DNA from: an uncultured Gemmatimonadales bacterium
GTDB lineage: Bacteria > Gemmatimonadota > Gemmatimonadetes > Gemmatimonadales > GWC2-71-9
NCBI GenBank assembly: GCA_963779755.1
Contig: CAVZZO010000003.1
Location: 1,568,001-1,632,000, forward strand
Length of the DNA stretch: 64,000 bases
Direction of reading: 5' to 3'
In this document: positions 5,874-29,398 of the stretch, piece by piece
Layout of the letters: each line of letters opens with the position of its first letter
How positions within the stretch are numbered: the first letter of the stretch is position 1
Made by a program: the position numbers and the translations under genes
The notes under the pieces: generated by a model
The model's input: only the letters and a program-made list of their open reading frames with translations
Database searches by the model: none
Told to the model about the DNA's origin: nothing

Positions 5874-7172
5874 TCAGGACATCCAGTAGAAGGCGAGCTT
5901 CGGCGCATCGGGCGGGATGATGCTGGTCTGCACGGTGATGCCGTTCTCTTCCGGCGAGCCGCCGGAGGACTGGGGCGGAGGCACCGCCCGGTAGAGGCGC
6001 CCCGAGACTTCGATAGTGCCCAGCATGTGATCCACCGCGTTCTGCAGGTAGGCCTCCTTGAAGTTCCCCAGCAGGTGCGTCGGCACCGGGGTCTTCCCCT
6101 GCACCTCCGGCAGGGCGAAACCGTCCAGCGAAATGGCCCGGTCCAGGAAGCAGGCATCGTACAGATACCAGGCGCCCTGGTAGCGGAGGAAGTTGACGCA
6201 ATGCCCGTCGGAGGCCACGCCGGGCGAGCCCCAGAACCGGTAGCGCCGCTCCGTCACGTCCTGCACCGGCGACAGGTCCACCGGCTGGGCGGAGACGTCG
6301 TGGAAGAGGCTGGGATCGTCCACCGGCTCGGTCCGGTTGATCCCCGGGTTCCGCACCACGATGGCGCACCAGCGCACATCGTGCTCCGCGTCGGCCGGCC
6401 AGGCCACCCAGAAGCTCCGCCGCTCCACCCGGACGCCCTGTACGCCCGCCATGGCCTGGAACATCCGGTACCAGCCGCCGCAGTAGCCGCCCTGCTTCTT
6501 CAGCATCTGGTGGACCGTCCAGGCCGGCACGGCATACTGCAGGCCCGTGGTACGCACCTTGGCGATGATGGCGTCGCAGATCGCCTTCTCGTCGGCGCAG
6601 CCGGCGGCCCAGTCGCAGGTCCAGCGCAGCAGCGGCTCGAAGACCCAGCGCCCGGCCACCGAGGCGGGCCGAGGCGCCCGGGCGGCCCGGTTGCTGCGAT
6701 GCCAGAGCACCGCCTCCACCGGCATCTTCCAGACGAGATAGATCAGATGGCTGCTGGTTCCGAGCGGCACCTCGCGGCTGCCGGCCCGGGCGGTCCATTC
6801 CCACTCCACCTGCACCGACCCGATGGCCGACGGCAGCGCGGCCTCCATCTCGAGTTCGCAGGGCGCCGAGCGGCCATCGGGGTTGAACTGGAGCCGCACC
6901 TCTCGCGCCGCGACCCCCGGGCCCCCCGTCCCTCGCGCCTGAACGGTCCAGGCGCCATCGTCCAGTCCGGCGGACCGGTTCAACACCACCCGGATGCGCG
7001 GGCGGGTCCCGCAGGGGTATGCGGCGGGGTCGGGACTGCTCCCCGCCCGCCACTCGGGAACGGCGCCCAGGAAACGCTCATCCCCGGGATCGCGGATGGG
7101 CACCGCCTGGTCGTTCTCCTGATAGGCGAACGCGATGCTCTGGATTGCCGGCGGTGGGCCGCTGCCTGCCAT
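5874..7172 (-). CDS. Hypothetical protein with a transglutaminase-like (Cys-His-Asp) domain
   Basis: GYCGGWYRMFQAMAGVQGV ... GHCVNF ... WYLYDAC has the order and spacing typical of TGase-like triads. Confidence 0.6.
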   Translation of the reverse strand: MAGSGPPPAIQSIAFAYQENDQAVPIRDPGDERFLGAVPEWRAGSSPDPAAYPCGTRPRIRVVLNRSAGLDDGAWTVQARGTGGPGVAAREVRLQFNPDGRSAPCELEMEAALPSAIGSVQVEWEWTARAGSREVPLGTSSHLIYLVWKMPVEAVLWHRSNRAARAPRPASVAGRWVFEPLLRWTCDWAAGCADEKAICDAIIAKVRTTGLQYAVPAWTVHQMLKKQGGYCGGWYRMFQAMAGVQGVRVERRSFWVAWPADAEHDVRWCAIVVRNPGINRTEPVDDPSLFHDVSAQPVDLSPVQDVTERRYRFWGSPGVASDGHCVNFLRYQGAWYLYDACFLDRAISLDGFALPEVQGKTPVPTHLLGNFKEAYLQNAVDHMLGTIEVSGRLYRAVPPPQSSGGSPEENGITVQTSIIPPDAPKLAFYWMS

Positions 7173-7205
7173 ACCGGACTCCGGTCGTGCGCTGAGGGAT
7201 CGTCC

Positions 7206-7282
7206 ATTGTAATACCGGCGCCGCCCCGCCGCCCGGGAAGAACCGGCACCTGCTTGACGCGGACCGTGCCGCTCCCTATATC
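7206..7282. promoter_or_regulatory. Divergent sigma70-like promoters
   Basis: Plus strand: TTGACG (7254-7259), 17-nt spacer, TATATC (7277-7282) upstream of the precursor. Minus strand: TACAAT (7211-7206) upstream of the TGase-like gene. Confidence 0.55.
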
Positions 7283-7365
7283 AGCCTACCGCCTTATCAC
7301 CGTTCCCTGCGGCGGGCCGGTTCTCCGGCCCGGGCGTCCCACCCTTTGCCCCCTGGAGGTCCCAT

Positions 7366-7560
7366 ATGTCCCGCTTTACCAGCAGGGATCTGATGGTCTC
7401 CGTCCTGCCGGAGGATGGAGTCGAGTTGATGGCCGGTCCCAAAGGATGCTTGAAAAACACTACCGGGTGCACCAACGTGACCAAAAAGCTGTACCCCGAG
7501 CTCTCCGGCCCGGACGACCTGGCCCTTCTGCAGGAGCAACTCACGCTGGCACAGCTGTAG
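7366..7560 (+). CDS. Putative lanthipeptide (RiPP) precursor peptide, 64 aa
   Basis: GGAGGT RBS upstream; central Cys/Thr-rich core GCLKNTTGCTNVT; first gene ahead of lyase-like and kinase-LanC genes. Confidence 0.8.
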   Translation: MSRFTSRDLMVSVLPEDGVELMAGPKGCLKNTTGCTNVTKKLYPELSGPDDLALLQEQLTLAQL

Positions 7561-7576
7561 GCTTCCGGGCGGAAGC
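7561..7576 (+). terminator. Stem-loop directly after the precursor stop (attenuator or mRNA stabiliser)
   Basis: GCTTCC-GGGC-GGAAGC hairpin with no U-tract. Confidence 0.4.
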
Positions 7577-7613
7577 GCCGATCCGTGCTTCCGCCCCTGT
7601 TCCTCCCTCCCCG

Positions 7614-8762
7614 ATGTCCACACTCCAGGAGTCGTTATTGCAGCGGCGATTCCGGGCTGCTTCCGCGTGGCGGATGGCAGCCTGGGACCGGTTGAGCCCG
7701 GGACGGCAGGCGTGGCTGCGTTCCTTCCGCGGCGATGACGATTTCTTCGGCATTCTGGAGCCCCGGGAGGCAGGGCCCGGCGTTCAGGCGATCTCCCGGC
7801 CCACCGCCCGGCTCTTCCAGCGGCTGGGGCGCCCAGCGCGCCTTCCCGCCGAGTTTCTCGAACAGGAAGGCGCCGCCGCCGCCCGCACCGCGGCCCGCCT
7901 GGTGCTGGACGGCGTCCTGGAAATCGAAGGCGACGGCGCCTTCGTGGGCGGACCGGCGGCGCATGCGGTCCTCTTCACCCCCACCGCGCCGGCCATCCCG
8001 CGCAGCGGAACGGCCCGGCTCTCCCGGGCCGCATTGCATTACGGCGAATCGCTGCGCCTGCGTGACGCTGCCCTGCTCGCTGCCCGGCTCTACCGGTTCA
8101 ATACCGAACCCGCGACCCCGCGCCTGCGCCGCGACCTCGGCGGCCGCGATGCGATTGGCCGGCTGCTCCGGAGCACGGGAATCTCCTGGGTGCAGAACCC
8201 GGCGCGCGCATGGCTCACCTGGGCTCCGCCGCGGCCCGGTCCTCCGGTCGAAGGGCGGCGCCACTACAAGCTCTACCTGAGCATCCCCGCCGCCCACCTG
8301 CCTGACGCGCTCCCGACCGCGCTCGGCGTCCTCCGCCGGGTGCCGGGTATCGATTCGGCCAAGCTGGGCGCAGACATTCCCGGCCTGATCCGGCCCGACA
8401 AGTTCGTGGTCTACTTTGCCCGCCGGCGTGACCTGCGCGCGGCAGCCCGGCTGCTGGCCCCCGCGCTCGAGGGCCTCCCGGCGCAGGGCGTTCCCTTCAG
8501 TGCCGGGCTGGAGCGCCGGGGCGTGCTCTCCTGGGGCGCCGAGCCGGCGGCCGACGAACCCGTTCCCGCGGGGTGGCAGGGCACCAGCTGGAGGACTCGC
8601 ATCGTCAGCCGGCTCGCCTCCGCGATGGCGGCGGCGCTCGCGCTGGACCACGCGCCTGTGCCCCCCTGGCGCTTTGCCCAGGACCGCCTGAGCCTCGACG
8701 GGGTCGATCCCAGGACCTGGACCCCAACCCCCGCCTTCCACTCGGACGGCGGCTCGCCATGA
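7614..8762 (+). CDS. HopA1/phosphothreonine-lyase-like RiPP modification protein, 382 aa
   Basis: Likely real start at ATG 7614 within the 5391-8762 ORF. Motifs YKLYLS, AKLG, RPDKFVVYF, SWGAEP, GVDP. ATGA overlap with the next gene. Confidence 0.65.
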   Translation: MSTLQESLLQRRFRAASAWRMAAWDRLSPGRQAWLRSFRGDDDFFGILEPREAGPGVQAISRPTARLFQRLGRPARLPAEFLEQEGAAAARTAARLVLDGVLEIEGDGAFVGGPAAHAVLFTPTAPAIPRSGTARLSRAALHYGESLRLRDAALLAARLYRFNTEPATPRLRRDLGGRDAIGRLLRSTGISWVQNPARAWLTWAPPRPGPPVEGRRHYKLYLSIPAAHLPDALPTALGVLRRVPGIDSAKLGADIPGLIRPDKFVVYFARRRDLRAAARLLAPALEGLPAQGVPFSAGLERRGVLSWGAEPAADEPVPAGWQGTSWRTRIVSRLASAMAAALALDHAPVPPWRFAQDRLSLDGVDPRTWTPTPAFHSDGGSP

Positions 8763-11150
8763 CGCTGACGGAGCCGCTGGTCCTGCGCCCGGACGTGCTG
8801 ATCATCCCGGTGCCCCGGCTCCCGGACCGGATTCGGCGGCAGATCCAGGCCGACCCTTCCGAATTTGCCGTGACTCTGCGCCACGGACGGGGTGGCTCGC
8901 GCGTGGTGACGGCCGAGACCGCCCGGCTGCTGGAAGGTTTCCGGTCGCCCAGCCGCGTGGTCGAGGTCGTCCTGCGGTACAGCAGGGAGCAGGGAGTGCC
9001 ACCCGATCGGTTGCTCGCCGACGTCTTTCCCGTTGTGAGCGACTGTTTCAACCAGCGATTTCTGGTTCCGGCCGCTTCGCCCGATGCCCGCCGCATCGAG
9101 CCGCTGCTGGCAAGCGGCGCGCGGGTGGCCGGCTGCGAGATCCGCCGGCTGGTTCATCTGCTGGAGGACACCGAGGTCTACCAGGGGCTCGCTTCCTCGG
9201 GCCGGGCCGTGGCCGTCAAGCTGGCCCGGTCCGGCTCGCGTGTCGTACGCGAGGCGTTTCGGCGCGAGGCCACCGTCCTGCGCCGGCTCCGGGGAAGGGG
9301 CGCACCGCGGGTGCTCAGGGCCGCCAACCGGCAGGGGCGGCCCTGCCTGGTCCTCGAGTGGTGCGCCGGGGTGCCGCCCACCATCACCCCCGGGGGGCCG
9401 TCGTCCCCCGGCGAGCGGATGCGGCTGCTGCTGGCCATCCTCCGCCGCTACGCGCGGCTGCATGGCCTGGGCGTGCTCCACGGCGACGTCCATCCGGATA
9501 ACATCCTGGTTGACCGGCGCGGCGGGGCGACGCTGCTGGATTTCGGCCAGTCGGCCCTCACCCGGGGCCGGCCTCCCGTTGCGCCCGGCCCCCGGGGCGG
9601 TGTGGCCTGGTATCTCGATCCCGAGTATGCCGGGGCGCTTCTTCGCGGCGAGCCGGATCCGCCGCTCACCGCCGCGGCGGAGCAGTACAGCCTGGCCGCC
9701 CTCGCCTATCGCCTGCTCACCGGCGACCACTACCTGGAGTTCGGGCTGGAGCGCCCGGTGCTGCTCCGCCAGATCGTGTCGGACGACCCGCTCCCCTTTG
9801 CCCGCCGCGGCACCGAGCCCTGGCCCGCGGTGGAAGCGGTGCTCGAGCGGGCGCTGGCCAAGGATCCGGGTGCCCGCTACCGGTCGGTCGCGGCATTCGC
9901 CCGGGCACTCCGCGCGGCCGCCGCTCGCCCGCGACCGGGCGGGCGGGTCCCCAGGAAGGAGGGGGCCGAACTGGAACATGCCGTTCGGCAAACCATTGAC
10001 CTGCTGGACCCGTCTGCCGCGCTCTTCGGCGGCGCGCTGGAGGCGCCTTCCTGTTCGGTGTGCTATGGATCGGCCGGGATCGCCTTCGCGCTCTACCGCT
10101 TCGCCTCGATGCGCCAGAGCCCGGCGTTGCTGGCCGCCGCCGACAGCTGGCTCACCCGCGCCGAGCGGGAGAGCGGCCACCCGGGCGCGTGGCACAACCC
10201 GGCGATCGACATGGGCGCCGGCGACGTGGGCCCGATCTCGCTTCTCAACACGCCCGCCGGGCTGCATCTGGTCCGGGCCCACCTGGCTCAGGCCGTGGGA
10301 GACCAGGAGGAGCTGACCCGGGCGGTCGAGCGGTTTCTCGACGCGTCCAGCACCCCCTGCGACAGGCTCGACCTCTTCCTCGGCCGGGCCGGCACGCTGC
10401 TGGGCATCGTTCTGCTGCTCGAGTTGCTGCCGGAGGGGGCAACCGCCGCCGCGGCCAGCCTGCGGAACGCGGGCACGGAAGCGAGTAGATTTCTCCGGGA
10501 CCATATCAATGCACTGCCGGTGCCCGGTGCCACCGGCGGCTTCAGCACCCTGGGCATGGCTCACGGATGGGCGGGCCTGCTCTACGCGCTGCTCTGCTGG
10601 CAGCGGGTCTCGGGGACCGCGCCACCGGCCTGGCTGGACCCGCGCCTGACCGCAACTGGCGGCTCTGGCCGAGCCGGTGGGACGGGGTCTGGGGTGGGTC
10701 AATGCCCTGCCGGCGGGGAACGAGGCCGCGGCGCCGGCAGCGGGCTGGTGCAAGGGAGCCGCGGGGTTCGTGCATCTCTGGCTGGAGTCCCATCGTAGCG
10801 GTGGGAACCGGGATCACCTCCGGCTGGCGGAGGCGAGCGGATGGACTGCCTGGGAGGCGGCCGAGCCGATGTCCAATCTCTGTTGCGGCGTCGCCGGCCG
10901 CGGATATGCCCTGCTGCGGCTGTACCGGCACACCGGATCGCCGGTGTGGCTGGAGCGCGCCCGGCGCCTCACCCTGCATGCGGTACGATCGCTGCGCCAC
11001 ACGGCGCGCGACCCCCAGGCCATGAGCCTCTACAAGCATTGGCTGGGGATCGCGCTGCTGGCGGCCGACCTGCAACGACCCGAACAGGCCTGCATGCCGC
11101 TGTTCGAGAGCGAAGGCTGGCCCGTCTCCGCCCCGGGAACCCATGGCTGA
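8759..11150 (+). CDS. Lanthionine synthetase: RRE-like N-terminus, Ser/Thr kinase and LanC cyclase, with a +1 frameshift near 10650
   Basis: Kinase motifs VAVK, HGDVHPDN, DFG. LanC motifs YGSAG, LGRAG, GMAHGWAG, and after the frameshift WCKGAAG and LCCGVAG. Confidence 0.85.
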
Positions 11151-14100
11151 TCTGAGGACCCTGCTGCAGGCCTCGCTCGAGGGCCGCTATCAGGTGGAGC
11201 GGCAGCTTGGTCGTGGCGGCATGGCCATGGTCTACCTTGCCCGCGACCTGCGCCACGACCGCCGGGTTGCCATCAAGGTGCTGCTCCCGGAGCTGGCGGC
11301 CGGCATCAGCGCCGAGCGGTTTGCCCGCGAGATCCGGGTGGCGGCGAACCTGAGCCATCCCAACATTCTGCCGCTGTACGATTCCGGCCTGCTGCAGTTA
11401 CCCATGGCCGAAGGTCAAAGGTCGAGGATCGGAGGGGAGGCTTCGGACTTCGAGAGGACGCCGCTGGCCGTCCCCTACTACGTCATGCCCTACGTGGAGG
11501 GTGAATCGCTGGCGCAGCGGCTCCACCGGGAAAGCCAGCTCCCCATCGAAGAGGCGCTGGAGATCGCCGAACAGGTCGCCGCCGCGCTGGCGGCGGCGCA
11601 CGAACAGGGCGTCATCCACCGCGATATCAAGCCGGAAAACATTCTGCTCTCGGGCGGCCGCGCCATGGTGGCCGACTTCGGGATCGCCCGGCCGGTGAGC
11701 GCCGAGGAGACCGCGCGGCTCACCGACACCGGACTCATCGTGGGCACGCCGGAGTACATGAGTCCCGAGCAGATTGCGGGCGACCCCCGGCTGGACAGCC
11801 GCAGCGACATCTACAGCCTGGCCTGCGTGGTGTACGAGATGCTGGTGGGGGAGCCGCCGTTCACCGGGCCCACGCCCCAGAGCATCCTGGCGCGCCATAC
11901 GCTGGAACGGGTCCACAGCATGCGCAACGTGCGCGACACCATTCCGGAGTCGGTCGAGCTCGCCGTGGCGCGCGGGATGGCCAAGGCCCCGGTGGACCGG
12001 TTCCGTACCGCCGCCGATTTTGCGCGTGCGTTGCGCGCCCCCGCCCCCCCGCCGACCCGGGAATATCCCGCTCTCGCTCCCGGCCGGCCTCGCGCGCGCT
12101 GGATGCTGGCGGCGGCCCTCACGGTATTGGTCCTGGTCGCCGTGGCGATCGGCTACCGTCTCCGGGACCGCCCGCCGCGGCCCCTCGCGCTGGATCCTGC
12201 CCGAGTGGCGGTTCTCCCCTTCCGGATCACCGGCACGGACGACAGCGCCTCACGGCTGCTGGCGCGGAGCGCGAGCGATCTTCTGGCCCAGCGGCTGCCC
12301 GGTGGTGGCGGTCCCGCGGCGGTGGATCCCGGCACCGTGAGCGGCGCGCTCAACCGCCTCCCGGCGCCGGACCGCGCGGCCCTCACCCCGACCATCGCGA
12401 GCCGGGTCGCGGGCATGGTGGGCGCGGGACAGGTTCTGCTGGGCGATCTCTGGACCGGCGACGGCCGGGTCGTGCTGAATGCCACCCTGCTGGACGCCCG
12501 CAACCAGCAGCCGATCACCCGGGTAGAGAACGTGCGGGGCCCGCCGGACAGCCTGTCGTCGCTGCTGGATCGTTTCACCACCGAGCTGCTGGTGCGTGCC
12601 GCGGGCGAAGCCGACCGGCTGCCGGAACTGCTCGGCCATCCGCTGCCGGCCTTGCGCGCCTACCTGGGAGGCACACTGGCCTATGCCGGCGGCAGGTTCT
12701 CCGAGGCCGCCGACCGCTACATGGCCGCCTTGCAAGCCGATCCCTCGCTGGCGGCCGCCACCCTGGGGCTTGCCTCGCTCTCTACCCTGGAGAAGGTGGA
12801 CGCCTGGCGGGACTCCGCCTGGCGGCGGCGGTCGGAGCTCATGCCGGCAGACCGGGCCTACCTCGCGGCCCTGGTGGGCCCGCGCTATCCCCGGGAATCG
12901 TCCGTAGCCGAGCGGTTGGCCGCCTGGGAGAAGGTGGTGGCGGCCGACCCCAACCACTGGGAGCGCTGGTACCAGCTGGGCGAACTGCTCTACCATTCCG
13001 GCCCGCTGCTCGGCGTGCCCGGGATCCACGAGCGGGCCGGGGCCGCATTCCGCCGGACCCTGGACCTGGCCCCCCGCTTCGTGCCGGCCCTGGGGCACCT
13101 GCTGGACCTGGCCGCGAGCGACACCGACACCGCCCAGGTGCGAGCCCTGGGCACGCGGTACCTCGCGCTGGACTCGGTGGGCGACCTGGCCGACTACTAC
13201 CGCTGGCGCATCGCCGTAGCGCTGGGCGACAGCCTCGCGCTGGCGCGGCTGCGCGGCCGCTTCAGCGACCTGAGCGTCGCCACGCTCGACCGCATCATCG
13301 AGATGTCCCAGCTGGACGGGGTCGCCCTGAGCGATGCCGTGCGGGCCGCGCAGGCACTGCGCAGCGGAAGCGGCCTGAGCGGCGACACCCGCGTGGCGTT
13401 CATGAAGCTGCAGGAGATCGCGCTCAACCGGGGACGACCGAAAGAAGCCGCCGACCTGTCCCGCCAGCAGACCTCTGAAATTTCCATCCGGCCGCGGGAC
13501 CGGTTCACGTCGGTGGCGGATGCGCTCTACTGGGGCGCGGACACGGTCCAGGCCGCGCGGCTGGTCCAGCAGTCGGCCGCGATCGCCGATGCGCCGGCAC
13601 GCCCCGGCGAGCCGGACAGCTCCGACGCCTACTTCGACGTGTGCGCCACCGGGCTCTGGCGCGCAGCGCGGGGAGAGATGGCTACCCTGCCCCGCCTCAT
13701 CACACGGCTACGCCGGGTCGCTCACCCCTTCGACCAGTTCCAGACGGGCTACATCGGCCTCTGCGCCGAAGTGCTGGAGACCCAACTCGCCTCCTCCCTC
13801 CGCCGGCCCGACCTTCCGGTGCTGGTGAACCGGCTGGACAGCCTCATGCGCACCGGACCGCCCTCGATTACCTGGATGCTGGTGGGGTCGAACCTGACGG
13901 TGGCGCGGTTGCGCGAGGCCCAGGGCGACTATCCCGCCGCGCTGGCCGCCACCCGGCGGCGGATCTACGTGACCGACCTGGGAGAAATCCGGATCCTGGT
14001 GGGGCTTTCATCCTTCCTGCGGGAGGAAGGCCGGCTCGCCGTCCTGGCGGGCGACACCACCGCGGCGGTGAGCGCCTACAGTCACTATCTGGCGTTGCGG

Positions 14101-14190
14101 GACGATCCGGAGCCGGGGGTGAAGCCGGAGGTGGAGAAGGTGCGGGCGGCCTACCTCGCCCTTGAAAAAGGACTGGGAGAAAAGGACTGA
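11143..14190 (+). CDS. Hanks-type Ser/Thr kinase with TM helix and TolB_N/TPR-like extracytoplasmic region
   Basis: LGRGGMAMVY, VAIK, HRDIKPEN, DFG, GTPEYMSPEQ; TM segment; VAVLPF motif. Confidence 0.9.
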   Translation: MADLRTLLQASLEGRYQVERQLGRGGMAMVYLARDLRHDRRVAIKVLLPELAAGISAERFAREIRVAANLSHPNILPLYDSGLLQLPMAEGQRSRIGGEASDFERTPLAVPYYVMPYVEGESLAQRLHRESQLPIEEALEIAEQVAAALAAAHEQGVIHRDIKPENILLSGGRAMVADFGIARPVSAEETARLTDTGLIVGTPEYMSPEQIAGDPRLDSRSDIYSLACVVYEMLVGEPPFTGPTPQSILARHTLERVHSMRNVRDTIPESVELAVARGMAKAPVDRFRTAADFARALRAPAPPPTREYPALAPGRPRARWMLAAALTVLVLVAVAIGYRLRDRPPRPLALDPARVAVLPFRITGTDDSASRLLARSASDLLAQRLPGGGGPAAVDPGTVSGALNRLPAPDRAALTPTIASRVAGMVGAGQVLLGDLWTGDGRVVLNATLLDARNQQPITRVENVRGPPDSLSSLLDRFTTELLVRAAGEADRLPELLGHPLPALRAYLGGTLAYAGGRFSEAADRYMAALQADPSLAAATLGLASLSTLEKVDAWRDSAWRRRSELMPADRAYLAALVGPRYPRESSVAERLAAWEKVVAADPNHWERWYQLGELLYHSGPLLGVPGIHERAGAAFRRTLDLAPRFVPALGHLLDLAASDTDTAQVRALGTRYLALDSVGDLADYYRWRIAVALGDSLALARLRGRFSDLSVATLDRIIEMSQLDGVALSDAVRAAQALRSGSGLSGDTRVAFMKLQEIALNRGRPKEAADLSRQQTSEISIRPRDRFTSVADALYWGADTVQAARLVQQSAAIADAPARPGEPDSSDAYFDVCATGLWRAARGEMATLPRLITRLRRVAHPFDQFQTGYIGLCAEVLETQLASSLRRPDLPVLVNRLDSLMRTGPPSITWMLVGSNLTVARLREAQGDYPAALAATRRRIYVTDLGEIRILVGLSSFLREEGRLAVLAGDTTAAVSAYSHYLALRDDPEPGVKPEVEKVRAAYLALEKGLGEKD

Positions 14191-16080: not shown

Positions 16081-16150
16081 GGCGGTACGGCGGGACGGCG
16101 GGACGGCGGGACGGCGGGACGGCGGGACGGCGGGACGGCGGGACGGCGGT
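16081..16150. repeat. Octamer tandem array (GGCGGGAC)n, left arm of four-helix-bundle cassette 1
   Basis: GGCGGTAC followed by 7 x GGCGGGAC and a partial unit. Confidence 0.95.
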
Positions 16151-16987: not shown

Positions 16988-17092
16988 GGTGAGCGGTGAG
17001 CGGTGAGCGGTGAGCGGTGAGCGGTGAGCGGTGAGCGGTGAGCGGTGAGCGGTGAGCGGTGAGCGGTGAGCGGTGAGCGGTGAGCGGTGAGC
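16988..17092. repeat. Heptamer tandem array (GGTGAGC)x15, left arm of cassette 2
   Basis: Perfect 7-bp period over 105 bp. Confidence 0.95.
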
Positions 17093-17100
17093 GAATGTCG

Positions 17101-17995: not shown

Positions 17996-18460
17996 ATGTC
18001 CTCACCTCTGTTCTCCTCGCTCGCCGGCGTCCCCAATCTTTCGGAGCTCGAGCCCACCCTGCTGGTGGGCGGCCAGCCCTCCGCCGACCACCTGCGCGCC
18101 TTCCGGGAGGCCGGCGGGGCGATCGTTCTGGACATCCGCGACCCGATGGAACCGCGGCCCATGGAGGATGAGCGCGAGCTGGTGGAATCGCTGGGTATGC
18201 GCTACGAGAACATCCCGGTCTCCGGCGGTGTGGACGACGCGCTGCTGGAACGGATTCTCACCGTGATCCGCTCGGCCGGAGAGCAGTCGCTGCTCTTCCA
18301 CTGCAACAGCGGCAACCGCTGCGGCGCGGCCGTCATCGCCCACTGCATGCTGGACCTGAACATGGACGAAGAGGCAGCGGTCACCGAGGCGATGCGCAGC
18401 GGGCTGCGCAGCCCGGAAATCCTCCAGTGGGGACTGACGTACGTCGAGAGCCACCGCTGA
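17996..18460 (+). CDS. Protein tyrosine phosphatase-like / DUF442 sulfurtransferase
   Basis: GGQP motif and HCNSGNR (CX5R-like) loop. Confidence 0.8.
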   Translation: MSSPLFSSLAGVPNLSELEPTLLVGGQPSADHLRAFREAGGAIVLDIRDPMEPRPMEDERELVESLGMRYENIPVSGGVDDALLERILTVIRSAGEQSLLFHCNSGNRCGAAVIAHCMLDLNMDEEAAVTEAMRSGLRSPEILQWGLTYVESHR

Positions 18461-18467
18461 CCACTCG

Positions 18468-18554
18468 CGACCTCTCGACCCTCTCGACCCTCTCGACCCT
18501 CTCGACCCTCTCGACCCTCTCGACCCCCTCGACCCCCTCGACCCCCTCGACCCT
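18468..18554. repeat. Nonamer tandem array (CCCTCTCGA / CCCCCTCGA)
   Basis: About 9 units with a 9-bp period. Confidence 0.9.
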
Positions 18555-26417: not shown

Positions 26418-26549
26418 GGTCAGACATGCCTGAGGAGTGGTCAGACATGCCTGAGGAGTGGTCAGACATGCCTGAGGAGTGGTCAGACATGCCTGAGGAG
26501 TGGTCAGACATGCCTGAGGAGTGGTCAGGCATGCCTGACCACTCCTCAG
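26418..26549. repeat. 21-bp tandem repeat x5 ending in a perfect 36-bp palindrome
   Basis: (GGTCAGACATGCCTGAGGAGT)x5 at 26418-26522; CTGAGGAGTGGTCAGGCATGCCTGACCACTCCTCAG at 26514-26549. Confidence 0.95.
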
Positions 26550-29398
26550 TTCGCGCCTTCCCCGCTCACCCTTGCCAGTCCTTCCTTCGCCTGCTGGTCC
26601 AGGTACTGGAGCGAGCTGTCGGCGCCTTTCCAGAGCGCCCGGAACTGGGTATAGGCATCGGCGGCGCCGGCGCGGTCGCCGGCGGCCTCCAACGCCCGTC
26701 CCAGCGCGAGGTCGGCGGAGGGCCGAACGGTGAAGTCGCTGACAAACCCGTTCTGCAGGTGGCGGATTCCATCCTCCCGGGTCTCCGCCCGCGACACCTC
26801 CAGGAGGGCGAGCTCGAAGCGGGCGAAGGAGCTCAGGAAATCCATTCCCATGAGCTGGGCCTGGCGTAGTCCGCCGCGCATCTCCCGGATGGCGGTCGCG
26901 GTATCCCCTTCCAGGGCGCTGGCCCAGCCGCGGAAGGCGCGCGCCGCCCCCTGGACGGTGCTCGAGGTATCCGGCAGAACCTTGAGCCCTTCAGCGATCA
27001 CCCGGCGCGCCTCAGCGGGGCGGTTGTGTGTCAGTTCCCACATTACCCGCGTCCGCCAGGCGAAGGGGTTGTTCAGCGGTACCCGGTTGATCACGCCGGC
27101 CATCGGCCCGGCGAACGAATCGTCCGTGAGGCGTGAGAGCGGGCCGATCAGGTATCCCCCGCTCGCCACCTGCGGGTTCACCGCGCGCAGGCTGTCCACC
27201 ATCGCCCGGGCCTGTTCCACCCGGCCCAGCCCGACCAGCACCGCCGCCGCGCTGATCATCATGTTGGCCCGGGCGGTGGCGTCCATCCGTTTGGCTGCCT
27301 GGCCCAGGAGCGACCCGATAATCGGGGTGATCCGCGGATTCGAGTCGGAGTACTGCGCCATCATGACGCCGAAGGTCGGCCCGGTGCCGGCAGTGGCGAT
27401 CTGACGAAGCGCCGAATCGGTGGCGGCGCCCCACAACGCCTTGCCCGCCAGGGCGTACTCCCGGGTTTCGGTCGAGTCGCCGTATTCCCGCATCAGGGCG
27501 AGGTAGCGATAGAACCGGGTGCTGTCGTGGTCGGCCGCCGCCAGCTCGAGCGGGTGCACCACCGCGGGCACCAGTGAGGAATCGCGCCGGATGACCGAGT
27601 CGAACGCCGCCAGCAGCTCGGCATTGCTGTTGGCCAGGAGCGGGCGCATGTGGTACATCGCGTCGCCCAGAAAGAACCAGCCGTCCACGTCGGCCGGGTT
27701 GGCGGCCAGGTAGCGGCGCAGGCTGTCCACCGTGGACGGGTCTCCCAGCTCGAACAGGCGGTACGCGCCGAGCAGGCGGCGCTCCCGCTCGGGCATGCGG
27801 TCGACATAGGTGCGGGCCAGATTCAGCGCCTCGATGGTTCCCGGCGCCTGCCATCCCGACTTCCAGCCCAATGTCAGGGCCAGCCGGAAGCTGGCCAGCG
27901 CGAAGGTGGAATCGGCGGCGATGGCGCGCCGGAAGGCGGCCGTGGCCGAATCCCAGTCGGCGGAGCGGTAGAGCTGCTCGCCCCGCAGGTACTCGCGCAT
28001 GGCGTCCACCGACGTGGTGGTGAGGGCGCTGACCCGCAGCGAAGGGATGGGCTCGTTCGAGCGCCAGATGTTGCGCATCAGCGCGAGGCTCAGGTCGTCC
28101 ACCAGCTGGAGCACGCTGTCGGCGCTGCCCTCCACCTGCGCCGCCGCCAGCTGCTGCCGGTCCCGGGCGTAGAGCGTGGCGTTGAGCCGGACACTGTTGC
28201 CGGTCGAGGTGATACTCCCCAGCACCACCGACCCGGCACCCACCTTGCGTCCCACCGCCAGCGCGCCGTCCAGGTCTTCATCGCGATTCCCGCCCCGCTC
28301 CCGCCACTGCGCCAGCACCGAGCGGGGCTCCACCGTGCGGATCCCACCCACCGCATTCAGGTTGGTGGAGAGCAGGTCCACCATGCCTTCCGTCAGGTAG
28401 TCCACGCCGGGACCCGAGGTATGGAAGGGCAGCACCGCGATGCTCTCGGCCCCCTTGACCACGGGGCCCCGCGCCCGGCGGCCGCCGATGTACCAGCCGG
28501 CGACGACGGCGGCCACCACCAGCGCGGCTCCGACCAGCCCGATCCGCCAGTCCAGGCCCCGGCGGGTTCCCTGCTTCAGGGCCCGGGAGAACTCGGCCAT
28601 GGTGGCGAAGCGGGCGGTCGGCTCCGAGGCCATGGCGCGGCCGATCGCCTGGTCGACCGGCTCCTCCACATCCTTGCGCTCGGCCCGGACCCGCGGCCGC
28701 GGACCGGTGATCGCCTGGGTGAGCACCGACTGCATGGTGGGGCCGCTGAAGGGCTGCTTCCCGGTCAGCATCTCGTAGGCGACACAGCCCAGGCTGTAGA
28801 GATCGCTGCGGGGGCCCACATCCTCGCTCGCGGTGGCCTGCTCCGGACTCATATAGGCCGGCGTGCCGATGGCCAGACCGGTCCCGGTGAGCTGCTGGCC
28901 CTGGCTGGCCGCGTTGATGGCCCGGGCGATCCCGAAATCGGCCACTACGGCGTGCCCGCCGGAAATCAGGATATTTTCCGGCTTGATGTCGCGGTGGACG
29001 ATCCCGCGCTCGTGCGCGTAGCCGAGCGCGCTCGCTACCTCCTGGGTGAGCTGCACCGCCTCATCGGCGGGCAGCCGCCCTTCCCGCTGCAGTTTGTCGC
29101 GCAGGGACTCGCCCTCGACAAACGGCATGACGTAGTACAGCATCCCCGCGGCCTCGCCCGAGTCGTACACCGGCACGATATGCGGGTGCTGCAGCCCGGC
29201 GGCCAGTTCGATTTCCCGGAGGAACCGCCCCTTGCCCAGAGTAGCCGACAGCTCCGGCCGCAGCACCTTGATGGCCACCTGCCGGCGATGCTTGCGGTCT
29301 TCGGCCAGGTACACCGTGGCCATGCCGCCGGCGCCAAGCTCGCGCTCCACATCATACCGCTCCGCCAGGGCGGCCTTCAGCTGGTCAAGGATCGTCAC
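26546..29398 (-). CDS. Hanks-type Ser/Thr kinase with TM and TPR-like region
   Basis: LGAGGMATVY, HRDIKPEN, DFGIA, GTPAYMSPEQ and IAVLPF motifs. Confidence 0.92.
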   Translation of the reverse strand: MTILDQLKAALAERYDVERELGAGGMATVYLAEDRKHRRQVAIKVLRPELSATLGKGRFLREIELAAGLQHPHIVPVYDSGEAAGMLYYVMPFVEGESLRDKLQREGRLPADEAVQLTQEVASALGYAHERGIVHRDIKPENILISGGHAVVADFGIARAINAASQGQQLTGTGLAIGTPAYMSPEQATASEDVGPRSDLYSLGCVAYEMLTGKQPFSGPTMQSVLTQAITGPRPRVRAERKDVEEPVDQAIGRAMASEPTARFATMAEFSRALKQGTRRGLDWRIGLVGAALVVAAVVAGWYIGGRRARGPVVKGAESIAVLPFHTSGPGVDYLTEGMVDLLSTNLNAVGGIRTVEPRSVLAQWRERGGNRDEDLDGALAVGRKVGAGSVVLGSITSTGNSVRLNATLYARDRQQLAAAQVEGSADSVLQLVDDLSLALMRNIWRSNEPIPSLRVSALTTTSVDAMREYLRGEQLYRSADWDSATAAFRRAIAADSTFALASFRLALTLGWKSGWQAPGTIEALNLARTYVDRMPERERRLLGAYRLFELGDPSTVDSLRRYLAANPADVDGWFFLGDAMYHMRPLLANSNAELLAAFDSVIRRDSSLVPAVVHPLELAAADHDSTRFYRYLALMREYGDSTETREYALAGKALWGAATDSALRQIATAGTGPTFGVMMAQYSDSNPRITPIIGSLLGQAAKRMDATARANMMISAAAVLVGLGRVEQARAMVDSLRAVNPQVASGGYLIGPLSRLTDDSFAGPMAGVINRVPLNNPFAWRTRVMWELTHNRPAEARRVIAEGLKVLPDTSSTVQGAARAFRGWASALEGDTATAIREMRGGLRQAQLMGMDFLSSFARFELALLEVSRAETREDGIRHLQNGFVSDFTVRPSADLALGRALEAAGDRAGAADAYTQFRALWKGADSSLQYLDQQAKEGLARVSGEGAN

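Follow-up and report, generated by a model that had tools for sequence, protein, structure and literature searches.

The 64,000-nucleotide stretch of DNA analysed here (hereafter, the window) stems from an uncultured Gemmatimonadales bacterium. It carries a small open reading frame (ORF) at positions 7366 to 7560, followed by the genes of a lyase-fold protein, of a kinase fused to a LanC-type cyclase (kinase-LanC) and of a Ser/Thr kinase, all in this order and on the + strand. On balance, we regard it as probable that the small ORF encodes the substrate peptide of a lanthipeptide-type system, the enzyme architecture of which lies outside the described classes. The peptide gene and the two enzymes which follow it comprise these features:

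7355..7359, + strand: ribosome-binding site GGAGG, read from the sequence, 6 bases 5' of the precursor ATG
7366..7560, + strand, stop codon included: precursor peptide gene (P0001, 64 aa), recognized by its homologues, by synonymous-dominated divergence and by a match to the leader hidden Markov model (HMM)
7366..7410, + strand: head (leader) motif, residues 1-15, MSRFTSRDLMVSVLP, the family motif, 13 of its 15 residues being invariant in alignment A1
7447..7482, + strand: core, residues 28-39, C-L-K-N-T-T-G-C-T-N-V-T, with two Cys, each with Thr at +4
7513..7557, + strand: tail (follower), residues 50-64, DDLALLQEQLTLAQL, with the stripe L52/L55/Q56/Q58/L59 kept
7567..7596, + strand: 12-bp GC-rich RNA hairpin with no T-run, between precursor stop and lyase start
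7614..8762, + strand: stand-alone lyase-fold protein (P0002, 382 aa), an N-domain (about residues 10-111) resembling the recognition element (RRE) of peptides that are made by the ribosome and modified after translation (RiPPs), plus a C-terminal phosphothreonine-lyase fold
8759..10648, + strand: kinase-LanC, first frame, with RRE-like domain (1-105), Ser/Thr-kinase domain (~135-420) and first LanC half
10647..10650, + strand: site of the frameshift within LanC, with four bases in place of the single codon of the relatives
10650..11150, + strand: LanC second half in the +1 frame, with WCKG and LCCG (putative zinc ligands), matching LANC_like profile positions 215-344 (E 8e-11)

The precursor ORF is real and under purifying selection. 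Its translation gives the same 64 residues that the initial annotation had quoted, including C28-L-K-N-T32-T-G-C35-T-N-V-T39 and the Cys-free tail. Protein homologues of 88%, 75% and 47% identity exist, and codon differences within the first 16 codons are predominantly synonymous, namely nine synonymous and one non-synonymous relative to locus L008 and five and one relative to locus L017. Long spurious ORFs are plentiful in the window because its DNA is roughly 70% GC; the GC content of the precursor by codon position (0.58/0.40/0.80) is the coding pattern of the neighboring genes. Pfam and NCBIfam gave no match to the peptide. A scan of all 64 kb with the leader HMM matched P0001 alone, and a second precursor or second copy of the system in the window was thereby dismissed.

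The hairpin between the precursor and lyase genes was examined by folding an 81-nt stretch, which yielded a centroid of -25.2 kcal/mol (z = -2.56, with 4 of 200 shuffles folding equally well). It may set the precursor-to-enzyme ratio or stabilize the transcript. Consensus scans of positions 7100-7700 found neither a sigma-70 promoter nor an intrinsic terminator, and Rfam gave no match over the whole window at gathering thresholds. Further along the operon, the ATG of kinase-LanC overlaps the lyase stop (ATGA at 8759-8762), and the end of LanC and the start of the downstream kinase overlap by 8 nt (11143-11150); such overlapping stops and starts suggest translational coupling.

Related systems were collected by a scan of one genome per species, which found 132 relatives, the best 80 of which were kept as related loci. 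A 15-residue head HMM, iterated over all six-frame ORFs of these loci, recovered 44 ORFs in 39 loci and the window, sharing the head motif F-x-x-[RK]-D-L-M-[VI]-x-V-L-P. The initial annotation had proposed to check whether small ORFs beside homologous lyase and kinase-LanC pairs keep both ends around a variable core, and the outcome was positive: all 44 ORFs lie on the lyase strand and none on the opposite strand, and all 44 carry the tail motif L-x-x-L-[RQK]-x-[QE]-L after their last Cys (41 by pattern, three by eye). A tail HMM matched 33 ORFs, again exclusively on the lyase strand (33/33). When two variant head patterns were added (M-P-K-[IV]-[RK]-D-L-G and the actinobacterial M-x-F-E-S-K-R-L-R-V-Q-L-P-C), the set grew to 62 precursors in 56 loci and the window, 50 of which end within 300 nt of the lyase start, while four lie further upstream and eight downstream. 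Judged by either head or tail, a same-strand precursor is present in at least 59 of 81 loci, and among the other 22, at least nine show more divergent precursors by eye (L005, L011, L033, L034, L047, L052, L068, L069 and L076).

Between the two conserved ends, the precursors vary widely. Their cores hold from 2 to about 40 Cys and are frequently built as tandem repeats. In the short forms, to which the window peptide belongs, the ORF stops 13-21 residues past the point at which the tail motif starts, and in the long forms 51-80 residues separate this point from the C-terminus and include a second conserved stretch. Particularly long precursors of 150-280 residues occur at L029 (6222-6980), L014 (2090-2902), L023 (6102-6986), L055 (6213-6977) and L076 (6138-6968). 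These contain up to about 40 Cys or 5-10 tandem units (for example C-T-D-C-T-T-Q-x-[FY]-S-I-C-G-T-[ST]-P) and end in a conserved coiled-coil-like stretch.

In a protein database, a 20-sequence profile retrieved 257 peptides at E<=1e-3; none of them contains a Pfam domain, and their sources name them, if at all, 'hypothetical protein'. All of the 119 database peptides that were examined show the tail pattern C-terminal to their last Cys. Over 120 peptides (P0001 and these 119), the first Cys comes 13-23 residues after the motif Asp (median 22) and the tail 8-34 residues after the last Cys (median 19), a regular spacing of head, core and tail that fits a loop held at both ends.

The second hallmark of the family is the placement of Thr four residues after Cys. 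Among the 62 locus precursors, Ser or Thr stands at +4 of 312 of 613 Cys, compared with 112 +/- 9 in shuffled cores (z = 22); none of the 500 within-core shuffles reached 312, and averaged per locus precursor the rule applies to 58% of Cys. The pattern is even stricter in the database peptides: 107 of the 119 contain just two Cys, each of them with Ser or Thr four residues on. In the 103 unique database cores, 214 of 218 Cys follow the rule where 24 would be expected (z = 42). Of the 252 Cys positions in the 120 peptides, 247 are followed by Thr at +4 and one by Ser, and the commonest core unit is C-[GA]-Q-x-T-A. The window peptide taken by itself is only weakly unusual in this respect, since simple arithmetic from its composition puts the chance of two Cys each with Ser/Thr at +4 at about 0.02; the weight of the pattern comes from the family.

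Because Thr stands at +4 in 214 of 218 Cys of the database relatives, rings with Cys on the N-terminal side are likely. The direction which the initial annotation had proposed is strongly suggested by the +4 Thr rule and by the scarcity of Ser/Thr 2-7 residues before Cys in the short forms, and it offers the most economical account of the cores. Thioethers with Cys before Ser/Thr are known from the class II products cinnamycin and duramycin and from ring A of mersacidin. There, they are single exceptions within a peptide; here, an entire precursor family is built on Cys(i)-Thr(i+4) as its repeated unit.

Not all parts of the core agree with this assignment equally well. The initial annotation had described two CxxxT motifs in the window peptide. 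The second, C-T-N-[VI]-[TS], recurs in each of the five sequences of alignment A1 and the +4 coupling holds family-wide, but the first is not kept in the two closest relatives of the window peptide, P0005 and P0006. Here, the first Cys has Thr at +6 (P0005) or at +3 and +5 (P0006), and at +4 in neither, which speaks against two uniform Cys-first units. The second unit, Cys35-Thr39, appears secure in the alignment, and the partner of Cys28 could be Thr32 or Thr33. Two further points weigh on the same side of the scale. In multi-core locus precursors, positions +1 (z = 12) and -2 (203 vs 115, z = 9.6) hold more Ser/Thr than expected as well, so that other pairings are possible there, and this is the pattern that C-T-x-C-T repeats would give. 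Additionally, the database peptides do not form a fully independent set, because the search profile includes the Cys columns.

These observations bear on an alternative in which the rings close in the usual direction, from Thr32 or Thr33 to Cys35, or in which the Cys serve in a disulfide or as metal ligands, the +4 Thr being retained for some other reason as a target of phosphorylation. The -2 enrichment in multi-core precursors would suit it, as would the sequence T-G-C-T-N-[VI]-T common to the window peptide, P0005 and P0006, which places a Thr at -2 of the second Cys in all three while the spacing from the first Cys to Thr varies (+4/+5, +6 and +3/+5). We consider this alternative unlikely, since Ser/Thr at -2 to -7 is depleted in the 103 short-form cores (15, 2, 4, 5, 5 and 6 of 218 Cys) that follow the +4 rule so closely, and since two-Cys peptides usually have no core Ser/Thr ahead of their first Cys. 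Moreover, a lyase and a zinc-type LanC are conserved alongside the peptides, and the +4 residue is nearly always Thr rather than Ser, as expected of a defined dehydrobutyrine acceptor.

The enzymes that are predicted to act on the peptide share a further element. The N-terminal 135 residues of kinase-LanC are conserved, are modeled with a predicted local distance difference test (pLDDT) value of 89 and occupy the place of the lyase domain of LanL. In the model, strands at residues 7-9, 13-17, 36-40 and 48-50 and helices at 52-62, 67-78 and 82-98 provide the three-stranded sheet and the three helices of a winged-helix domain. Foldseek matched this domain to TigE (E 2.8e-3) and PqqD (5sxy, E 7.5e-3, TM 0.65), and further to TbiB1 with its leader, MibB, ThcOx, MccB, LynD, PbtF and lasso B1. 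The top-ranking matches, all with E below 0.08, are RRE-containing proteins, with TM values of 0.62-0.70 to small RREs, and unrelated proteins (PKMT, GdmN) stand lower in the list. A comparison by hhalign of kinase-LanC residues 4-73 with P0002 residues 10-83 gave a probability of 79.8% (E 1.5e-5, 70 columns), and the models of the two N-domains have the same order of strands and helices. Both enzymes thus seem, from profile comparison and modeling, to carry the same kind of RRE-like N-terminal domain, and each may bind the same handles in turn, because the two domains are homologous.

Some caution about this domain is warranted by three results that count against its assignment. The E-values of the fold search are modest (2.8e-3 to about 0.2), and the sequence evidence is thin: at E<=1, Pfam matched PqqD (PF05402) in 3 of 36 N-domain members (best E 0.005), ThcOx in two and DUF7782 in eight of the 36, and PqqD did not match the window's own kinase-LanC N-domain. 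A profile of the domain searched against PDB sequences gave no match.

Binding of the precursor is supported by a three-chain complex model of kinase-LanC residues 1-430, the lyase and the precursor, each supplied with an alignment. Its score is 0.73, compared with 0.44 for the best of three controls and 0.00 for two unrelated peptides. The score mark used is reached by 116 of 157 solved complexes and by 2 of 215 mismatched pairs, a calibration that holds only roughly here, since the model took three chains and purpose-built alignments. At least 55% of contacts are common to the runs, with a partner pLDDT of at least 54. In the best run, peptide residues 2-16 are placed in contact with RRE residues 37-40, 43-51 and 54 and with kinase residues 330-336, residues 6-13 being modeled as an added strand against RRE residues 37-39 and 47-50. 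Tail residues 51-52, 54-56, 58-59 and 62-63 would touch RRE residues 66-69, 71-72, 82-83, 86-92, 94-95 and 97-100. No confident contacts between peptide and lyase are listed for this run.

The initial annotation had taken leader and follower as recognition elements, possibly one per enzyme. The first part of this proposal stands, in that both ends are conserved and are modeled as docking elements; the second finds no support in the three-chain model, which docks both ends on the RRE of kinase-LanC, the head on its beta-strands and the tail on its helices. The assignment of both handles to one domain is nevertheless soft, because the 0.44 control, in which the kinase part was replaced and lyase and peptide were kept, likewise docks the peptide on the lyase at some level of confidence. 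This result tells against the proposed arrangement, as does the possibility that the head pose reflects mere likeness, given that complexes of RREs with leaders have already been solved.

The tail requires separate consideration. Residues L52, L55, Q56, Q58 and L59 are invariant in the five-sequence alignment A1, and the tail leucines of P0001 fall in two stripes, the conserved one being L52/L55/L59. The description of the tail as 'amphipathic' does not survive as a property of the whole segment: the helical hydrophobic moment of residues 50-64 is 0.06, a value that 93% of 2000 shuffles equal or exceed, and the idea of a plain amphipathic helix was rejected on this ground. It is conceivable, if rather unlikely in our estimate, that the head alone is the recognition element and that the tail belongs to the product, as an oligomerization or membrane-active helix or as a signal for export or cleavage. 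With its leucines on two faces and its low hydrophobic moment, the window tail resembles a buried or paired helix, and half of the leader-HMM precursors (22 of 44) continue past the tail motif with the long extension, which exceeds the need of a docking handle and thus argues against the tail being a handle alone. A further conserved stretch ending in K-x-x-L-K/R is present in 17 of those 22, and one long-form precursor has a weak match to K-box, a coiled-coil family (E 0.028). Known RREs bind leaders as strands according to PMC10604976, and none of the RRE fold matches offers a counterpart of the tail-helix pose. Set against this are the first eight motif residues, which are kept even where the ORF ends 13-21 residues past the start of the motif, and the distance of the tail from the last Cys, which stays at 8-34 residues while the cores vary. 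The complex model also places L52, L55, Q56, Q58 and L59 on RRE residues 68, 86 and 90 with low expected error.

The lyase-fold protein P0002 was matched by neither Pfam nor NCBIfam, and Pfam HopA1 (PF17914) remained unmatched even at E<=5; a phmmer search against PDB sequences also gave no match. Its AlphaFold2 model (pLDDT 92.7, from a 35-sequence alignment) was most similar in Foldseek to LxmY of the lexapeptide dehydratase complex (9dk3_B, E 1.9e-7). The C-terminal half further matched HopA1, OspF and SpvC, as well as the lyase domains found in CuvL (class IV) and, within class III, in SalKC, ThurKC and PneKC. The label 'lyase' in the initial annotation therefore appears right at the level of the modeled fold, with LxmY, HopA1, CuvL, OspF and SpvC as its matches. 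In the alignment, Lys219, Tyr221, Arg260, Arg327 and Arg358 are invariant and Lys250 and Lys263 nearly so, a set of residues that would suit a phosphate-binding elimination site. The family is sizeable and sharply bounded, with 1612 representatives at 50% identity among 1.84 billion sequences at E<=1e-3 and 1166 at E<=1e-30; where sources give such proteins a name, it is hypothetical protein.

In the first frame of kinase-LanC, Pfam recognized Pkinase (8.4e-15) and LANC_like (1.1e-10, profile positions 5-180), and APH matched the kinase domain more weakly than Pkinase (1.3e-09). The kinase residues K154, E170, H241, D243, N248 and D261 are invariant in 36 sequences, and the LanC motifs AHG, WCxG and CCG are present in 61, 62 and 61 of 62 complete relatives, respectively. 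The best NCBIfam match was LanL (4.2e-28, 98.2 bits vs a cut-off of 650), and the LanKC (class III) model reached 46.7 bits vs a cut-off of 575. The alignment of the LanL model begins at model position 203, which indicates that the LanL lyase domain is missing from kinase-LanC.

All 62 complete relatives encode kinase-LanC in a single frame. The LanC domain in the window is split by one extra base at 10647-10650, which does not lie in a long homopolymer, so that the first frame stops at 10798; this counts against a functional system in this genome. The frameshift is either an assembly error or a recent inactivation that leaves a pseudogene. Were the window copy decaying, the peptide here would be at most dehydrated and not cyclized by its own LanC, because the frameshift removes the zinc-ligand half of that domain. 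We hold this decay to be doubtful, though not to be neglected. While the extra base sets the window apart from every relative, the other parts of the system are intact, including the starts, the overlapping stops and starts, the kinase residues and, in the shifted frame, WCKG and LCCG, and no second lesion was seen in the window system. Single-base indels are a common assembly error, and the sequence comes from a 1.8-Mb assembly in which such an indel could have arisen in this way.

The pairing of the two enzymes is conserved across the related loci, kinase-LanC directly following the lyase in 77 of 80. Three loci lack a kinase-LanC match: in two, the sequence breaks off no more than 170 nt from the lyase, and in the third (L063) 1081 nt of DNA follow downstream without such a match. 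Records of the lyase and the peptides come from about eight phyla (Acidobacteriota, Gemmatimonadota, Chloroflexota, Actinomycetota, Nitrospirota, Bacteroidota, Armatimonadota and Myxococcota), and groups among the 80 loci include Thermoanaerobaculia, Solirubrobacterales, Nitrospira, Kofleriaceae, Chitinophagia and the cultured Catellatospora sp. KI3 (L072). L008, which is nearest to the window in peptide, P0004 (see below) and downstream kinase, is labeled Bacillota, and the other near loci are labeled Gemmatimonadota/Gemmatimonas; binning may explain this. Clustering of ORFs of at least 150 aa over the 80 loci yielded three widely shared clusters, the lyase (80), kinase-containing proteins (76) and antisense shadow ORFs (69), the next largest being precursors, in 12 and 8 loci. 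The same clustering revealed neither a protease nor an exporter conserved near the system, a point that does not favor a lanthipeptide-type pathway.

Two neighboring genes in the window flank this set:

11143..14190, + strand: Ser/Thr protein kinase with TPR-like C-terminal region, 1015 aa (Pkinase 1.1e-46)
5874..7172, - strand: P0004, 432 aa, divergent, of no known family, membership in the system uncertain

The downstream Ser/Thr kinase is a putative and probable member of the operon. Full-length homologues follow kinase-LanC in 5 of 62 loci, some Ser/Thr kinase lies directly downstream in 12 of 62, and one is found anywhere in the locus in 28 of 62. In Thermoanaerobaculia, proteins of about 1160-1180 aa that combine two protein-kinase domains with PD40 beta-propeller repeats stand beside the enzyme pair at L046 (3117-6596 and 10589-14098) and L067 (10551-14096). 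After each of them comes a short precursor with two Cys; in L046 this arrangement is found on either side of the pair, in L067 on the downstream side.

This recurrence of kinases might indicate that the small ORF is a regulator and that the lyase and kinase-LanC act on the neighboring Ser/Thr kinases, eliminating an activation-loop phosphate and capping the product in the manner of eukaryotic LanC-like proteins. The phosphothreonine-lyase fold is indeed the fold of effectors acting on kinases, and the two-kinase propeller proteins stand next to short precursors. Such a role is nonetheless highly improbable, as 34 of 62 loci have no extra kinase and Cys/Thr-rich ORFs with two handles are found in most loci. 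RRE-like domains, moreover, are peptide-binding modules of RiPP enzymes, and in the complex model the peptide docks where the two unrelated peptides do not.

P0004 has homologues in the same place only in L008 (1894-3153), L017 (480-1769) and L061 (5256-6536), the three loci nearest to the window among the 80. It matched nothing in Pfam, even at E<=5, or in NCBIfam, and its atlas clusters are unnamed. Its candidacy as a clear transglutaminase-like protease, suggested by a Cys/His/Asp pattern seen by eye, was rejected, given an atlas lead to Transglut_core of only 0.78 and its presence in just 3 of 80 loci. Elsewhere in the window, a second Ser/Thr kinase (27494-29380, - strand) lies 13 kb from the operon kinase and shares 38% identity with it (tblastn E 2e-100). 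Tandem arrays with a period of 7-9 nt (one of 21 nt) are located at 2495-2604, 16081-16149, 16988-17093, 18459-18554 and 26418-26538, along with nine shorter ones. They are perfect or near-perfect, lie in or beside intergenic DNA, and several are read as peptide repeats by spurious ORFs.

Comparison with the known lanthipeptide classes places the system closest to several of them at once. As in the class IV enzyme LanL (CuvL of curvocidin, PDB 8cav), a Ser/Thr-kinase-type domain precedes a LanC-type cyclase with putative zinc-ligand motifs, split in the window by the frameshift, and the fold of P0002 matches the CuvL lyase domain. Unlike in class IV, the lyase is encoded by a separate gene, an RRE-like domain replaces the N-terminal OspF-like lyase domain, and the precursors have a conserved tail and Cys before Thr. 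The third ligand motif of kinase-LanC is CCG, as in ProcM-like class II enzymes, whereas that of LanC and LanL is Cys-His. With class V (LxmK-LxmY of lexapeptide, CaoK-CaoY of cacaoidin), the system shares a stand-alone lyase of HopA1-like fold and a separate kinase. The LanY feature is matched at the level of the fold, with LxmY and HopA1 among the best matches, and not by Pfam PF17914. CaoK and CaoY form a heterodimer, as described in PMC9486802. Different from class V, the kinase is of the Pkinase rather than the APH type and is fused to a canonical LanC, and the lyase has an extra RRE-like N-domain.

The tail L-x-x-L-Q-x-Q-L recalls the leader motif of classes III and IV, and as in class III ThurKC, the recognition element would be a short Leu-rich helix. 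Here, it lies C-terminal to the core and is modeled on the RRE rather than on the kinase N-lobe. Unlike in class III LanKC, zinc-ligand motifs are present and the cores are Cys-x-x-x-Thr, not the Ser-x-x-Ser-x-x-x-Cys of labionin. The leader of ThurKC (PDB 8sao) binds the kinase N-lobe as a three-turn amphipathic helix, and the class III cyclase domain is devoid of zinc ligands (both from PMC10604976). Class VI, the LanKCb of streptococci, consists of a single LanKC-like enzyme (He et al., 2023, as cited), a description that, to the extent that the citing text conveys it, the split genes and RRE found here do not suit.

The RRE-like domain of kinase-LanC has the PqqD-like fold of TbiB1, LynD, MibB/NisB and MccB, and the head is modeled as a strand at the edge of its sheet. 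Unlike in known RREs, one copy is fused to a kinase-LanC and a second to a phosphothreonine-lyase fold, and the domain is modeled as also holding the C-terminal helix of its substrate. The literature covered, outside of which most subscription papers lie, contained no description of a split lyase with an RRE-kinase-LanC, of the precursors or of the leader strings. Two candidate prior descriptions were set aside, one being a paper on a 'novel lanthipeptide class' that describes a class I cluster, the other a coral-microbiome paper on ordinary class II and III clusters. Family libraries and source annotations do not name the lyase/kinase-LanC/precursor system either.

Taken together, the locus is a new architectural variant of lanthipeptide-type biosynthesis as judged from sequences and models, its chemistry, product and function being predicted. 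In the process that we envisage, the head (residues 1-15) would add as a beta-strand to the N-terminal RRE-like domain of kinase-LanC, and the tail helix (residues 50-64) would pack on the helices of the same domain, so that the middle of the peptide, about 35 residues, could loop out to the active sites. The kinase would phosphorylate Thr32 (or Thr33) and Thr39, and the stand-alone lyase, with its own homologous RRE-like domain, would eliminate the phosphate to give dehydrobutyrine. The LanC zinc site, with Cys-Cys-Cys ligands, would then add Cys28 and Cys35 to the dehydrobutyrines C-terminal of them, and two small methyllanthionine rings would result, Cys forming the N-terminal side of each. 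The loss of water, the closure of the rings, their direction and the requirement for head or tail are predictions from sequences and models, a point that weighs against the scheme as a whole. Its main risks are a prior description that escaped notice, a tail that is part of the product and an inactive copy in this genome.

A broader interpretation is that the family represents an undescribed lanthipeptide-type class, with an RRE on both kinase-LanC and lyase, a substrate held at both ends and serial reverse Cys(i)-dehydrobutyrine(i+4) rings, distributed mostly in uncultured soil and sediment phyla. Many of its substrates would be proteins of 150-250 residues that contain up to about 40 Cys, end in a coiled coil and are paired with Ser/Thr kinases of the sensor type. 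We put this forward tentatively, as a reasonable possibility that falls somewhat short of being probable. From the large, kinase-paired substrates it would follow that the products may be intracellular or cell-bound cross-linked proteins or signals, and not secreted antibiotics.

It is synthetase architecture that defines the lanthipeptide classes, and a lyase combined with an RRE-kinase-LanC fits none of those found. According to PMC10604976 (2023), no RRE is identifiable in any of the core enzymes of classes II-V; measured against that account, the domain described here would mark the first case of an RRE-type domain for leader binding among kinase-type lanthipeptide enzymes. The strict Cys-x-x-x-Thr unit is a directly testable prediction of reverse-direction rings, and the cultured actinomycete Catellatospora sp. 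KI3 offers an experimental entry point. A substrate that is seemingly held by both of its ends also bears on how RiPP enzymes gain access to internal cores and on engineering with movable recognition tags.

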